64,000 nt of DNA, from positions 133,975 through 197,974 of the IMG/VR virus record IMGVR_UViG_3300032330_001609; one strand, written 5' to 3'. Source of the DNA: a virus (lineage: Duplodnaviria; Heunggongvirae; Uroviricota; Caudoviricetes). How positions within the stretch are numbered: the first letter of the stretch is position 1; every line of letters starts with the position of its first letter. Position numbers and translations under genes: made by a program. Below the pieces are notes generated by a model. It searched no databases, was not told where the DNA came from, and saw only the letters and a list, made by a program, of their open reading frames with translations. Below, piece after piece: positions 414 through 63,191 of this stretch.

Positions 414-421
414 TATCTTTG
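414..421 (+). promoter_or_regulatory. Bacteroidota sigmaA-type -7 box TATCTTTG
   Basis: Matches TAnnTTTG; A/T-rich upstream (aaaaagtattatctttgtc). Confidence 0.5.
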
Positions 422-472
422 TCATCGTTAAATAAAAACTAAATAGGTTTAACGAATTATTTACAAAAAACG

Positions 473-485
473 AATATTTATAATA
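473..485 (+). promoter_or_regulatory. GATATTTAT-class phage promoter-like motif
   Basis: gaatatttataat, 14 nt before the ATG at 499. Confidence 0.35.
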
Positions 486-498
486 AAAACTATTAAAA

Positions 499-1857
499 AT
501 GAAGATTACATCGTTACTTTCTAATTTGATAACTGAAAACGCACGTTTACAATTATTATACGACAAGTTTGTAAAACCAAATCCAAAAATGAAATCTGAG
601 CCGGGAAGACCTGCAAAAGGTATTATGGATTTTGATACATTAAAAACTATTATATTTGGTGACCCTGATACTAAAGTTCCTAATGGGTTCAATAAAGAAG
701 GTGCGACTTTTGAGGAAATGTCAAAAGTTAAGGTCGGTAAGTATGTTCAATGGATGTTGAAAAACTTTGTGGCACCTAAATTAGAATATGAAGTAGGTAC
801 ACCTGAATATAAAAGAGCTGCTCAAGAATACAGACGTTTATTCATTGAAGATATGGATAAAATGAATGTTGACTTATTAAAGTTTGAAAGATTCAAAGGT
901 AAATTACCTGAAGACCAAAGAGATATTAATAAATTAACTCCTGCTGAATTATCATTAGCAGTTGATGAATTCAAATTAACTAAAGATTCTAAATCAGCTA
1001 AAGAGGAAAGAATTACAAAAGAAAATCCATTCCAATATCCGGGCTCTAACATTGAATTTGTTGGTCCTAATTGGACGATTGTAAAAGTTAGTGAAAATAA
1101 TCAAGAGGGTAAAAATGCTGCGGCTTATTTCGGTGGATATTATGACACGAGAGATGAGTTCGATGAATCTAATTGGTGTACTTCAAAACTTGATGGTTCG
1201 TACTTTGAACACTATATTAAAGATGGTCCTTACTATGTGGTTTTACCTAACACTTCAACAGAGTACGGTAAAAAAACCGGATTACCTAAAGAAAGATATC
1301 AATTCCATTTCCCATCTAATCAATATATGGATAGAAGAGATAGAGGGATTAATTTAGTAGAATTCTTAAATGGTAAAGGTGCGGAACTTAAAGACTACTT
1401 CAAACCTCAGTTTGCTAAAGGTTTAACTAGTAGTGGTGGTGATATCGTTGAGATTAACTATCCGGATAGTGCATCAGGTAAGTTCATTGCATTATATGGT
1501 TTTGAAGAGTTATTTGAATCATTACCTGATACAATTAGTAAATTGTTAATCAATAATAAGAGTCAAGAACGTATTGCGTTAGAAGTACCGGCTTCGATAG
1601 GTAGATTTACAAACTTAGAGGCGTTGATGTTACAAAACATCGCTAAAACATTACCTGATACTGTTTGTCAATTGAAGAAATTAAACTTCTTGGCATTACC
1701 TGGTAACAAAGATTTACAATCTTTACCTGAATGTATTAAAGAATTACCGGAACTTGCTTTCATTAACTTGAAAGATGTTAATCCAAACATCAATATTCCT
1801 CAAGGATTAAAAGATAGATTGGAAGATGAAGGAATGGGATTCTATTATTTGAACTAG
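499..1857 (+). CDS. Leucine-rich-repeat containing protein
   Basis: 452 aa ORF. The C-terminal third has LxxLPxxIxxLxxLxxL repeats (IGRFTNLEALMLQNIAKTLPDTVCQLKKLNFLALPGNKDLQSLPECIKELPELAFINL). Both a host-type and a GATATTTAT-type promoter lie upstream. Confidence 0.55.
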   Translation: MKITSLLSNLITENARLQLLYDKFVKPNPKMKSEPGRPAKGIMDFDTLKTIIFGDPDTKVPNGFNKEGATFEEMSKVKVGKYVQWMLKNFVAPKLEYEVGTPEYKRAAQEYRRLFIEDMDKMNVDLLKFERFKGKLPEDQRDINKLTPAELSLAVDEFKLTKDSKSAKEERITKENPFQYPGSNIEFVGPNWTIVKVSENNQEGKNAAAYFGGYYDTRDEFDESNWCTSKLDGSYFEHYIKDGPYYVVLPNTSTEYGKKTGLPKERYQFHFPSNQYMDRRDRGINLVEFLNGKGAELKDYFKPQFAKGLTSSGGDIVEINYPDSASGKFIALYGFEELFESLPDTISKLLINNKSQERIALEVPASIGRFTNLEALMLQNIAKTLPDTVCQLKKLNFLALPGNKDLQSLPECIKELPELAFINLKDVNPNINIPQGLKDRLEDEGMGFYYLN

Positions 1858-1879
1858 TATTAACTAAAAACACTACACA

Positions 1880-2170
1880 ATGAAAAATGTCGATGTTGAA
1901 ATCTACATTAATCAATTTATAACTTTCTTTGATAACAACCCCAACGACTTGATTGAGTTGATTGGGGATGTTTTGAAGGAGGACTTCTATAAAAGAGTAA
2001 AACAACAATCATTAGAAAATTATGATAACGGAGAGGATGTTTCATTAACTCAGAAACAAATCATCTCTATTGTTGTTGCTCTTAAACAATCTCAGAACCA
2101 AGAGATTGATATTGATAAAATTAAATCAGTATTTATTCAAACACCTTTCGGACAATTTTCTCTTAATTAA
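1880..2170 (+). CDS. hypothetical protein
   Basis: 96 aa ORF in the + gene block. Confidence 0.5.
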   Translation: MKNVDVEIYINQFITFFDNNPNDLIELIGDVLKEDFYKRVKQQSLENYDNGEDVSLTQKQIISIVVALKQSQNQEIDIDKIKSVFIQTPFGQFSLN

Positions 2171-2211
2171 TTTGTATAACTAAAATTATTGTATTACATT
2201 TGTACACTTAA

Positions 2212-61963: not shown

Positions 61964-61988
61964 TCCCATAAACTTAAAATATTATTAT

Positions 61989-62417
61989 ATGAAAAAATTA
62001 TTGGGATTATTTGTGATGTTATTTTTATTTTCTTGTGACGCACCGGTGGATAAAATTTATCACTCTGACAAAATTTATCTTAGACAGTTAGTTAATACAA
62101 CTGTGTCTGAAACTTACACACACGGGTCATTCTTCTTGGTTGCCGGGTCAATTACAAGTGAATCGACAACAGAAACAGTTATTAAATTAATGGGTAAGAT
62201 TGATGATGAGTACCGTTTCATTCAATTTGATTTTGAGAGAGCTAGAATTAAAATTGATAATAGTGTTAAAACACCATATATTGTTTTGAACTATAAGAAT
62301 GACCGGGAAATATCAATTGACGAACAGTTAAAAAATATGAATTGGTATGGTGTTACCGTTACCATCGTATGTCCGGAACAATACTTACCTGAGAAATTAT
62401 TACCAATTCAAATATAA
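61989..62417 (+). CDS. lipoprotein
   Basis: Start trimmed to MKKLLGLFVMLFLFSCDAP (lipobox LFSC). Confidence 0.55.
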   Translation: MKKLLGLFVMLFLFSCDAPVDKIYHSDKIYLRQLVNTTVSETYTHGSFFLVAGSITSESTTETVIKLMGKIDDEYRFIQFDFERARIKIDNSVKTPYIVLNYKNDREISIDEQLKNMNWYGVTVTIVCPEQYLPEKLLPIQI

Positions 62418-62418
62418 T

Positions 62419-62643
62419 ATGGTAAAAATAGGAGACAAAGTGTATGTTGATGGTTATACCTCAATGGCACAACAAAATGCCGGTGTTGAAAAAATTAAAA
62501 AAATTGAATCTCGGTTTGATGAAATGACCGGTGAAAAATTTGACATCTACAAAGTAGGTGGTGATTGGTACGACTCCCGAGACGGTGGTTGTTATTCAAA
62601 TAAAAATTCAATGTATTATATAGAATTAATGAAAGATGAGTGA
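62419..62643 (+). CDS. hypothetical small protein
   Basis: Start trimmed to MVKIGDKVYVDG. Confidence 0.4.
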   Translation: MVKIGDKVYVDGYTSMAQQNAGVEKIKKIESRFDEMTGEKFDIYKVGGDWYDSRDGGCYSNKNSMYYIELMKDE

Positions 62644-62914
62644 GTTAACAGTTGCGGTAACGTATAGACGAGAAGATGAGAGAAACTATTTTGACATTTC
62701 CTTTCCAAAGGGTCAAGAGTTATTATCAGTTAAGGAAACAACAATGATATTAGCCGCGGGTATGTCCTTACTAATTAAAGCGGGACATAAAAAAGGTGAT
62801 GTTAAAGATTATGAAATGTTGGAAATGATAGTTGGTTATTTGAATAGTGAGTTTGTTTCTACCGATTCATTTGAGGATGCAACCATTCAACCAAACACAA
62901 TAAAAAGTGAGTAA
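62636..62914 (+). CDS. hypothetical protein
   Basis: 92 aa. Confidence 0.45.
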   Translation: MSELTVAVTYRREDERNYFDISFPKGQELLSVKETTMILAAGMSLLIKAGHKKGDVKDYEMLEMIVGYLNSEFVSTDSFEDATIQPNTIKSE

Positions 62915-63152
62915 TAGAAAAGAAAAATTAATATTAGATTATTTGGAACGAACCTATGGTAAAAGTGAATTATTTGAAAATGATATAACTTACTCAATTG
63001 CCGGTGTTTGTATCTATTACAAAATTTCTAAACAAATTGGGTTTACCGGTGTGGTTCATTTAGATTTAGTAAATTGGTTTGGTGATGGAAGACATTACTA
63101 TCCTGAATTACGTAAATGGTTCTCCGAGAAATATAATTTAGAAGTTATTTAA
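62907..63152 (+). CDS. hypothetical protein
   Basis: 81 aa. Confidence 0.45.
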   Translation: MSNRKEKLILDYLERTYGKSELFENDITYSIAGVCIYYKISKQIGFTGVVHLDLVNWFGDGRHYYPELRKWFSEKYNLEVI

Positions 63153-63175
63153 TCCCCCACATTCTTTTAGGATTG

Positions 63176-63191
63176 GGGGATATTTATTTAT
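63176..63191 (+). promoter_or_regulatory. GATATTTAT-class motif
   Basis: gggggatatttatttat directly before the ATG at 63192. Confidence 0.5.

Follow-up and report, generated by a model that had tools for sequence, protein, structure and literature searches.

Bacteroidota transcription and translation signals differ from textbook ones, and a 64,000-nucleotide (nt) stretch of an uncultured tailed phage (IMG/VR record IMGVR_UViG_3300032330_001609, positions 133,975 to 197,974; hereafter the window) raises the question of how a phage of such a host marks its transcription units. A preliminary description made from the sequence alone had proposed two promoter classes, a host-type element, here called M1 (TATCTTTG; other TAHHTTTG forms are termed M1 variants), and a phage-specific motif, here called M2 (ATATTTAT), placed directly upstream of start codons. 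Our analysis confirms both motifs and the partition of gene sets between them, which are conserved and far above chance. M1 is well supported by its sequence as a host-type Bacteroidota sigma-A promoter, and M2 is well supported by its position as a distinct -10-type promoter that would often give leaderless mRNAs. Our best inference is that M2 is a phage-specific promoter class derived from the host's own element, presumably recognized by a phage-encoded or phage-modified specificity factor; the motifs only suggest when each class would be transcribed.

The window has a G+C content of 31-32% and about 119 genes, with the + strand predominating. It corresponds to roughly 256-320 kb of a 332,109-bp scaffold (ENA ERZ28594640, KRAE22-1 scaffold_1), and the source is therefore a jumbo phage; 83 kb of this scaffold, 246.7-330.0 kb (about 25%), was read. 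In the window, TATCTTTG occurs 22 times on both strands, compared with 4.7 ± 1.9 in dinucleotide shuffles, and 15 copies are intergenic and lie 4-77 nt 5' of an ATG; the count of 14 given at the outset was close, and the accompanying range of 10-40 nt was too narrow. Four further TAHHTTTG variants stand in promoter position (2195, 6077, 36293 and 38479), and a TTTG is found 17-21 nt upstream of 8 of the 15 intergenic TATCTTTG copies and of two variants, that is, at 10 M1 sites, in agreement with the spacing of about 19 nt first proposed for several of them. The 8-mer core ATATTTAT has 37 copies, 19 being expected, and 28 of these lie 4-27 nt 5' of an ATG that opens an open reading frame (ORF) of at least 40 amino acids (aa). 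The longer 9-mer GATATTTAT has 11 exact copies, so that the at least 18 copies originally claimed are reached only by the core. The arrangement ATATTTAT-N4-5-ATG was observed 16 times versus 0.8 expected.

When the 8-mers in the 60 nt upstream of all genes were ranked by enrichment, a check related to the motif search that the preliminary description had called for, ATATTTAT came first (22 versus 1.9) and ATCTTTGT/TATCTTTG second (14 versus about 1.1). The window spacers contain 28.7% G+C, and each intergenic gap was shuffled on its own as a composition control; ATATTTAT was found 29 times versus 4.0 (shuffle maximum 12) and TATCTTTG 15 times versus 0.3. These gap-wise shuffles, of the kind named beforehand as a refuting test, rule out an artefact of AT-rich composition.

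Both motifs are concentrated at the heads of transcription units. M2 precedes 25 of 62 unit-leading genes and 2 of 56 operon-internal genes (Fisher p = 1.3e-6), and M1 precedes 19 and 5 of them, respectively. M1 alone precedes 17 of the 62 unit-leading genes and M2 alone 23, and both stand before two of them (genes 499 and 6098); to this extent the proposed division of gene sets by motif largely holds. In co-directional gaps, M2 was found 13 times in sense and once in antisense orientation and TATCTTTG 11 times in sense and never in antisense, and convergent gaps contain essentially no M1 or M2. A terminator consisting of a G+C-rich hairpin and a T-run lies directly before 9 of 14 co-directional M1 sites and 5 of 10 M2 sites. 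The 26 M2-led genes belong to 25 BLAST families, which rules out recent gene duplication as the origin of the M2 copies. Five divergent gene pairs are separated by spacers of 27-59 nt that contain two opposed M2 copies and nothing else, and because these spacers hold no other candidate, M2 must carry the promoter function there.

The same distribution bears on the idea that M2 is an RNA-level or regulator signal, be it a translation enhancer replacing the Shine-Dalgarno sequence, an endoribonuclease processing site, or the operator of a repressor or activator. The distance of 4-5 nt to the AUG at many sites does resemble ribosome-binding-site spacing, and the motif is partly palindromic at divergent pairs (ATATTTATAAATAT, 14640-14653). 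Operon-internal genes would need a translation signal too, however, and they rarely carry M2; a second spacing class of 13-27 nt is unfit for a ribosome site, the divergent spacers would be left devoid of a promoter, and at other leaderless genes M2 occupies the exact slot of the host -7 element. We therefore regard such a role as highly improbable.

The distance from M2 to the ATG is bimodal in the window, with 4-5 nt at 16 sites, 13-27 nt at 12 sites and 6-12 nt at none. M1 sites close to the ATG are also present, at 36293, 38479, 43465 and 60939 (4 nt) and at 58380 (6 nt). An independent set consisted of 1.01 Mb of pattern-selected related contigs from which the selecting site had been removed. 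Here, ATATTTAT was the commonest 8-mer at exactly -12 to -5 of ORF starts (52 versus 0.53 expected), and TATATTTG (34 versus 0.20), TATTTATA (26 versus 0.43), TATCTTTG (26 versus 0.15) and GTATTTAT (13 versus 0.17) were likewise enriched; the spacing histogram peaked at 4-6 nt and at 11-18 nt and dipped between them, at 7-10 nt. The relatives provide 71 unique M1 examples of the leaderless type, and the base before the ATG is T at 91% of M2 and 87% of M1 leaderless-type sites, which gives a pyrimidine-purine start context. The ATG next to the promoter element is the true start codon of genes 6098 and 14291, as ortholog protein alignments begin there and the sequence upstream diverges as non-coding. 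The -7 element of Flavobacterium johnsoniae covers positions -12 to -5, and transcription starts after a further 4-5 nt (PMC6847099); because of this geometry the close sites imply leaderless mRNAs, as had been proposed for M2. Judged from the sequence, the close sites of both M1 and M2 probably yield leaderless mRNAs, and the leaderless arrangement is a property of the phage group, not of M2 alone.

How the two elements relate to each other and to the host promoter was assessed base by base. The Bacteroidota promoter consists of a -33 TTTG, which is weak in the F. johnsoniae logo, and a -7 TAHHTTTG (PMC6847099). M1 shares this consensus of the primary sigma factor (sigma-ABfr), as initially recognized, together with the spacer of about 19-20 nt and, by prediction, the 4-5 nt to the start site, although the phage copies vary unusually little (TATCTTTGT or TATATTTGT). 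Aligned in one register, the M1 consensus reads T-A-T-(C/A)-T-T-T-G-T and that of M2 (T/G/A)-A-T-A-T-T-T-A-T, so that a single base accounts for most of the difference between the cores; their positions relative to the ATG are offset by 1 nt. The two classes were compared over the window and its relatives (G-class, n = 204; A-class, n = 420). A TTTG 16-21 nt upstream is present at 60 of 204 G-class sites, where the spacing peaks sharply at 19-20 nt, versus 20 of 420 A-class sites (Fisher p = 8.5e-17), and M2 has instead a T-tract about 11-16 nt 5' of the motif. The first base is T in 69% of the G-class, whereas in the A-class it is T in 42%, A in 25%, G in 22% and C in 11%. The distance from the 8-mer to the ATG peaks at 4 nt in the G-class and at 5 nt in the A-class, and the ATG lies 4 nt past the element at 58 of 204 G-class sites. 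M2 thus shares with the host -7 element its A, T and TTT and its slot, but every copy replaces the G by an A, the first base is relaxed, a further T is conserved, and the -33 TTTG is absent except at those 20 sites; by position it acts as a -7 element, yet it falls outside the host class. Promoter mapping in F. johnsoniae showed T-12, A-11, T-8, T-7, T-6 and G-5 to be nearly invariant (PMC6847099), and because this holds for G-5 and T-12, the host holoenzyme would be expected to read M2 poorly on its own.

These comparisons can also be read as describing a variant, -33-independent host promoter, with unmodified host sigma-A reading both elements, no sigma switch, and gene sets that differ by promoter strength rather than by timing. 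The cores do align as nATMTTT[G/A]T in the same slot and share the T at -1 and the A at +1, the parts of the source genome that were read contain no sigma or polymerase gene, and a few genes have both elements in tandem. Such a reading nevertheless appears unlikely, because M2 always departs from the nearly invariant G-5 and is relaxed at T-12, because it is invariant over 8 bases, unlike a degenerate weak variant, and because the classes differ in the -33 TTTG and in their 1-nt register; in addition, tail genes of the relatives use M2 only, and the relatives encode sigma factors.

Both elements are conserved beyond the window. An IMG/VR scan with the product of gene 6098 yielded 47 related loci on contigs of up to 322 kb, and [AG]TATTTAT-N4-ATG was intact at the gene 6098 ortholog in all 38 loci that include the start (42-84% aa identity), with diverging flanks. 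Similar conserved footprints were found at genes 499, 5850, 11440 and 14291 for M2 and at gene 15253 for M1. A composite pattern, in which the M2 core stands 4 nt before an ATG and the codons encode MK-I-I-(S/T)-E, was found in at least 118 stretches in IMG/VR, many of them on 200-320-kb contigs, and in 4 stretches only in 596 Gb of bacterial and archaeal genomes, one of these in an uncultured Flavobacterium bin.

In the window, M1 leads mostly small and membrane proteins, a tRNA nucleotidyltransferase and a Band 7 protein, and M2 leads a NUDIX protein, a DUF192 protein, an endonuclease, a glycosyltransferase, an operon with peptidoglycan-binding and DHH proteins, the Laminin_G_3 unit and most proteins with an MKxIITE-type N-terminus. 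In the relatives, M2 stands 40-42 nt before the tail sheath gene (phrog_23, E = 1e-55 to 1e-62), 35-38 nt before the tail tube gene and at +4/+5 before a gp25-like baseplate wedge gene. A DnaB helicase/ribonucleotide-reductase operon is headed by AGTATTTAT, and a DNA polymerase gene and a helicase gene have TATATTTG 67 nt and TATTTTTG 45 nt upstream, respectively. M2 thus includes late genes and probably represents a middle-plus-late class.

The suggestion that M2 stands mainly before paralog-family genes and genes for proteins with the N-terminal leader is only partly borne out: its genes spread over 25 families, and the link with the N-terminus is weak, as a strict MKxIITE-type start is found in 6 of 25 M2-led and 0 of 17 M1-led genes (p = 0.07). 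Six operon-internal genes carry this N-terminus as well, and it is therefore not part of the promoter. Fourteen window proteins start with MK(I/L/V)(I/V)I(T/S)E(S/N/D/R) (11440, 18871, 24642, 41257, 41600, 41929, 42237, 42620, 51718(-), 52036(-), 58004, 61608, 63192 and 63779), and looser variants include MKDLIKKILREE and MNLxENIxRI; such starts also occur in relatives (L106, L124 and L176-L221), where the N-terminal motif is found on a sigma factor of the extracytoplasmic function (ECF) type as well (MKIIITESQY). Synonymous codons vary within the motif, which argues for selection on the protein. It may serve in targeting or processing, as the T4 capsid-targeting sequence does, or form the first strand of a fold common to these proteins.

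If M2 requires its own specificity factor, the gene for it could be sought in the relatives. With a home-made region-2 profile, an ECF-type sigma factor was detected in 13 pattern-selected loci. This protein, which is not encoded in the window, has about 190 aa and sigma-70 regions 2 and 4 only, with Pfam scores of 47.7-51.9 bits for Sigma70_r2 (cut-off 24), 51.5-56.8 bits for Sigma70_r4_2 (25.7) and 21.5-26.8 bits for Sigma70_ECF (21.1). A protein-based IMG/VR scan with it, free of selection for M2, gave 57 loci, and within the close family [AGC]TATTTAT-N4-ATG stands directly before the ECF sigma gene in 19 of 20 distinct upstream variants; its divergent neighbour bears TATCTTTG-N4-ATG. The M2 copy before the ECF gene could reflect autoregulation or simply membership of a later class. 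The loci are syntenic with window genes 6098-18759, and the sigma gene, in convergent orientation, directly follows the ortholog of gene 18259. Contigs of 270-325 kb that use both motifs encode a second ECF variant along with a 293-295-aa sigma-A-like protein. The sigma-A-like gene lies just 3' of smpB, and a host-type TA..TTTG is found 12 nt before smpB in two of these contigs (L232 and L233); the gene next downstream of the sigma-A-like gene is M2-led. The nearest cellular matches of the sigma-A-like protein are RpoD/SigA of Flavobacteriia and other Bacteroidota, at 42-44% identity. This arrangement fits, and does not prove, a cascade in which host sigma-A would drive a phage sigma factor that in turn would read M2.

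Several side observations concern these sigma loci. Contigs L232 (ENA ERZ27246748, 273,750 bp), L233 and L234 (GCA_902729655.1, 312,403 bp), all of which use both motifs, have a cluster with the sigma-A-like sigma factor, SmpB, an S1-domain protein, an RNase R-like protein and lysozymes; L232 additionally encodes an ECF sigma factor, and L234 an IS605 OrfB/Cas12f-like TnpB, as well as a 293-aa LAGLIDADG-like ORF between smpB and the sigma-A-like gene. A long form of the ECF sigma factor (336-360 aa; L111, L123, L074 and L135) has an N-terminal domain homologous to a 368-aa window protein (11792-12898), whose N-terminal part is 42% identical to it over 130 aa.

The preliminary description had likened M2 to the T4 late promoter and had pointed to a phage sigma factor or a gp55-like gene. 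T4 late promoters carry TATAAATA at -10 and no -35 element, and they are read by gp55 with gp33 and the sliding clamp; T4 late mRNAs have leaders with Shine-Dalgarno sites. The likeness holds for the architecture, as M2 is likewise a single conserved -10-type element that is host-like but distinct and that heads virion genes in the relatives. It does not extend to the sequence, which in the gene-proximal orientation mismatches the T4 element and is closest to the host -7 element, nor to the sigma factors of the relatives, which are ECF-type or sigma-A-like and not gp55-like. TATAAATA itself occurs 30 times in the window versus 16.6 ± 4.1 in shuffles (shuffle maximum 30) and is outside the top 25 upstream 8-mers. 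A tblastn search with T4 gp55 in 1.87 Mb (window, flanks and relatives) gave nothing better than E = 0.3, so that no gp55-like gene was found in this sample, which includes about a quarter of the source genome; in the phage records, gp55 matched 2004 entries, with no Bacteroidota host among the tallies and the 60 rows listed. An E. coli RpoD BLAST search against the related loci gave no match. A phage-encoded sigma factor nevertheless remains a plausible M2 reader, given those encoded by the relatives.

A phage RNA polymerase was considered as well. In polymerase-encoding jumbo phages, an invariant AT-rich motif of about 10 nt near -10 marks early operons (PMC7598289), and M2, which is AT-rich, invariant, about 10 nt long, centred near -9 and likewise findable by sequence analysis alone, might be the early promoter of a virion-packaged or phage-encoded RNA polymerase in the style of phiKZ and AR9. 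The phiKZ late consensus TATG, moreover, echoes the T at -1 plus ATG found here. However, no beta/beta'-like gene and no NADFDGD, DFDGD or DxDxD motif was found in the 1.87 Mb (ORFs >150 aa, 54 of them >600 aa; about 25% of the source genome), the many host-type promoters argue for use of the host polymerase, M2 heads late structural genes of the tail in the relatives, and its closest resemblance is to the host sigma-A element; AR9 transcripts, for their part, have leaders of 26-491 nt (PMC5312081). An own polymerase as the reader of M2 is thus very unlikely.

We consider it probable from the sequence evidence that two related -10-type elements head the transcription units, with M1 read by the host polymerase and M2 through a specificity changed by the phage, and with many leaderless mRNAs. 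M1 (TTTG, 19-20 nt, TA(T)(C/A)TTTG(T)) would be used by the host RNA polymerase in its unmodified form, presumably as soon as infection begins. M2, (T/G/A)ATATTTAT(A/T), would occupy the same slot one base further upstream; of the host -7 element it keeps the A, T and TTT, but A replaces the nearly invariant G, and the -33 TTTG is missing. Poorly used by the host holoenzyme alone, it would be read by a polymerase with phage-altered specificity, the likeliest agent being a phage-encoded sigma factor, and the alternative a phage factor that frees host sigma from its -33 contact. Transcription would start 4-5 nt past the element, and at the 16 M2 and 4-5 M1 sites of the window that have the ATG at this distance, the transcript would begin at or next to the A of the AUG and be translated leaderless; the remaining sites would give A/U-rich leaders of 13-45 nt, leaders of 6-12 nt being avoided.

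A number of points weigh against this proposal. The start sites, the reader of M2 and the timing are deduced solely from motif position, and 20 of the 62 unit-leading genes have neither motif. M2 is about one base away from the commonest M1 variant, so that host sigma-A might read it unaided, and M2 is not purely late, as one relative has the M2-core variant GTATTTAT at the head of a DnaB helicase/ribonucleotide-reductase operon. Genes for a sigma factor, a gp55-like protein or an RNA polymerase were found neither among the window proteins (Pfam, PHROG) nor in the 83 kb of the source scaffold that were read nor in the closest relatives (L003-L049), and at the place of the sister clade's ECF sigma gene the window has genes 18871-20607 instead. 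Among the best 120 homologs listed for each sigma family, none is on the source scaffold, and the three 308-322-kb contigs nearest to the window were not returned by IMG/VR scans with both sigma alignments. Both sigma types also keep region 4, which normally reads a -35-type element, and M2 is without such an element.

A wider extension of the proposal can be put forward only tentatively, namely that a large clade of freshwater Bacteroidota jumbo phages combines a sigma cascade, achieved through a minimal promoter change, with systematic leaderless translation. Host sigma-A would read TTTG-N19-20-TATMTTTG promoters, some of which would drive the phage sigma-A paralog and the ECF sigma factors. 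A phage factor would then read ATATTTAT, in which the G of the host -7 element has become A and the -33 contact is dispensed with. Both classes would be so placed that about one third of the transcription units start exactly at the AUG, in a host phylum without Shine-Dalgarno pairing.

Thermus phage P23-45 offers a precedent for one candidate mechanism. There, the host holoenzyme is modified, and middle and late promoters of the extended -10 type are used after gp39 blocks the contact of sigma region 4 with the -35 element (PMC7403470). A similar switch to promoters without an upstream element might operate on M2, although, unlike in P23-45, bases inside the -10-type element are changed too; no gp39-like protein turned up, and no search aimed at gp39 was made. 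Cultured freshwater Flavobacterium jumbo myophages, in a paper whose main text does not use the word promoter, are reported to have two sigma-factor variants per genome and an acb1 anti-CBASS (cyclic oligonucleotide-based antiphage signalling system) gene (PMC13573597); by this description they resemble the present phages, as the window likewise has an Acb1 gene and the relatives have two sigma types.

As to the host, Shine-Dalgarno cores are at chance level (6 of 117 genes versus 6.7 expected), and position -3 is mostly A in the window genes, like the Kozak-like pattern described for Flavobacterium (PMC6847099). Because M1 fits the Bacteroidota consensus, no Shine-Dalgarno signal is seen, and the sigma-A-like protein of the relatives is nearest to those of Flavobacteriia and Bacteroidota, the Bacteroidota host first suggested is upheld, and the source is very probably an uncultured 332-kb phage of a Bacteroidota host, most likely a Flavobacteriia-like one. 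No cultured relative was found in 50,697 phage records by megablast with 25 kb or by tblastn with two window proteins.

The individual M1 sites illustrate the variety of contexts. The first, TATCTTTG at 414-421 (+), lies 77 nt before the ATG of gene 499-1857, in tandem with M2 at 474, and the variant TAATTTTG at 6077-6084 (+), replaced by TATCTTTG in many orthologous loci, is just 5' of the M2 copy of gene 6098. Both a -33 TTTG and a preceding terminator accompany M1 at 15223-15230 (+; 22 nt before gene 15253, kept in L019, L023 and L048), 20673-20680 (+; 21 nt before gene 20702) and 56761-56768 (+; 15 nt before gene 56784). A -33 TTTG is also present at 17952-17959 (+; 15 nt before gene 17975), 31564-31571 (+; 39 nt before gene 31611, Band 7/SPFH), 44969-44976 (+; 28 nt before gene 45005) and 50027-50034 (-; 23 nt before gene 49839-50003), and at two sites 4 nt before the ATG that are predicted to be leaderless, the variant TACTTTTG at 38479-38486 (+; ATG 38491) and M1 at 43465-43472 (-; gene 43140-43460); the variant TACATTTG at 2195-2202 (+) has a TTTG 20 nt upstream and lies 18 nt before gene 2221-3963. 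Sites behind a terminator further include 16502-16509 (+; 19 nt before gene 16529, tRNA nucleotidyltransferase), 58380-58387 (+; 6 nt before ATG 58394) and 61956-61963 (+; 25 nt before gene 61989), and two with a spacing of 4 nt and a predicted leaderless mRNA, the variant TATATTTG at 36293-36300 (+; ATG 36305) and M1 at 60939-60946 (+; ATG 60951). The remaining two are at 29742-29749 (+; 28 nt before gene 29778) and 54149-54156 (-; 45 nt before the small ORF 53951-54103).

Among the M2 sites, several are kept in orthologs: 474-481 (+; 17 nt before gene 499), with motif and spacing kept in 15 of 16 ortholog variants, 6036-6043 (-; 27 nt before gene 5850-6008), kept in most orthologs, 6086-6093 (+; 4 nt before ATG 6098), kept in the 38 loci described above, and 11416-11423 (+; behind a terminator, 16 nt before gene 11440), kept in 18 ortholog variants. 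The opposed copies overlap at 14640-14647 (+; 21 nt before gene 14669, NUDIX), which is not in all relatives, and 14646-14653 (-; 4 nt before the ATG of gene 14291-14641, DUF192), which is kept in 32 ortholog variants. Other opposed copies are found at 27249-27256 (-; 4 nt before the ATG of gene 26561-27244) and 27259-27266 (+; 18 nt before gene 27285), which share a 40-nt divergent spacer; at 28658-28665 (-; 15 nt before gene 27827-28642) and 28673-28680 (+; 4 nt before ATG 28685, MKIKITESQ...), with a 42-nt spacer; at 34787-34794 (-; 15 nt before gene 34187-34771, non-specific endonuclease) and 34819-34826 (+; 4 nt before ATG 34831, glycosyltransferase 2); and at 46838-46845 (-; 5 nt before the ATG of gene 46494-46832) and 46866-46873 (+; 4 nt before ATG 46878), with a 45-nt spacer, the latter heading the unit with a 632-aa Laminin_G_3 virion-like protein. 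Behind terminators, M2 lies at 18850-18857 (+; 13 nt before gene 18871), 38048-38055 (+; 4 nt before ATG 38060) and 39915-39922 (+; 5 nt before ATG 39928), where it heads the operon 39928-42994. A distance of 4 nt to the ATG is also found at 50063-50070 (+; ATG 50075), 52400-52407 (-; gene 52036-52395), 54389-54396 (+; ATG 54401), 57992-57999 (+; ATG 58004), 61596-61603 (+; ATG 61608) and 63180-63187 (+; ATG 63192, DUF5872). Longer distances occur at 24232-24239 (-; 14 nt before gene 23522-24217), 53639-53646 (+; 15 nt before ORF 53662-53979, 105 aa with a weak coding score), 57373-57380 (+; 14 nt before gene 57395) and 58876-58883 (+; 14 nt before gene 58898). At six M2 sites of the 52-63 kb region, AAT(T)CCCCC(C) is found 18-26 nt 5' of ATATTTAT (52434(-), 53604, 57342, 57960, 58849 and 63151), in some cases together with GGATT or GGGGG downstream, and may represent an upstream element of a sub-class or a terminator stem.

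A third promoter class with the sigma-70-like pattern TTGACW-N16-18-TAWWWT was also considered and rejected, as it is not enriched in the window (7 versus 3.6 ± 1.9). Separately, the phage dnaK gene of five relatives (L064, L077, L083, L108 and L164) has a conserved upstream TTGAC(A/T)-N17-TATA(T/A)(A/T), a canonical sigma-70-type -35/-10 pair that is unexpected for a Bacteroidota system.

Pfam and PHROG searches with all window proteins identified accessory functions that include thioredoxin, glutaredoxin, a glutamine-synthetase-like protein, two DNA methyltransferases, NUDIX, tRNA nucleotidyltransferase, Band 7, glycosyltransferases, Acb1 and the Laminin_G_3 virion-like protein. The gene for the Acb1-like anti-CBASS phosphodiesterase (Pfam PF23474) is at 44374-44940, and homologs that are 38-40% identical adjoin the sigma cluster of L233 and L234. 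The M2-led gene 27827-28642 (-) encodes a 271-aa protein with about ten CxxCxGxG-type cysteine repeats, similar to the DnaJ zinc finger, and the protein encoded by 20702-21451 has a run of nine threonines at its start (MTTTTTTTTTVS; ACT/ACC repeats) and a DUF6011 match at its C-terminus. About 850 nt at 52780-53640 are without a credible ORF and have more C and G runs than the surroundings; tRNA and Rfam scans of the window, this region included, gave no match. The flank beyond the window (scaffold 320-330 kb; L051 10600-20591) encodes a ClpP-type protease, a tail-collar domain protein and a T4_Y16D family protein, which hint at a distant tie to T4-like myophages.

Phage promoters that mimic the host -10 element and escape the upstream element are a classic device, as in T4 late and P23-45 middle and late promoters. 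In the literature we found no description of M2 as a phage promoter and none of a host-mimicking class for Bacteroidota phages. If confirmed, M2 would provide a sequence rule for annotating transcription units and true starts in hundreds of uncultured jumbo-phage contigs, and the G-versus-A pair of elements would be a natural system for studying how Bacteroidota sigma-A and a phage sigma paralog discriminate between promoters. Translation initiation in a phylum that makes no use of Shine-Dalgarno pairing could be studied on the large natural set of predicted leaderless genes that the phage group would offer, and the motifs could serve as orthogonal, infection-inducible promoters in Flavobacterium genetics.

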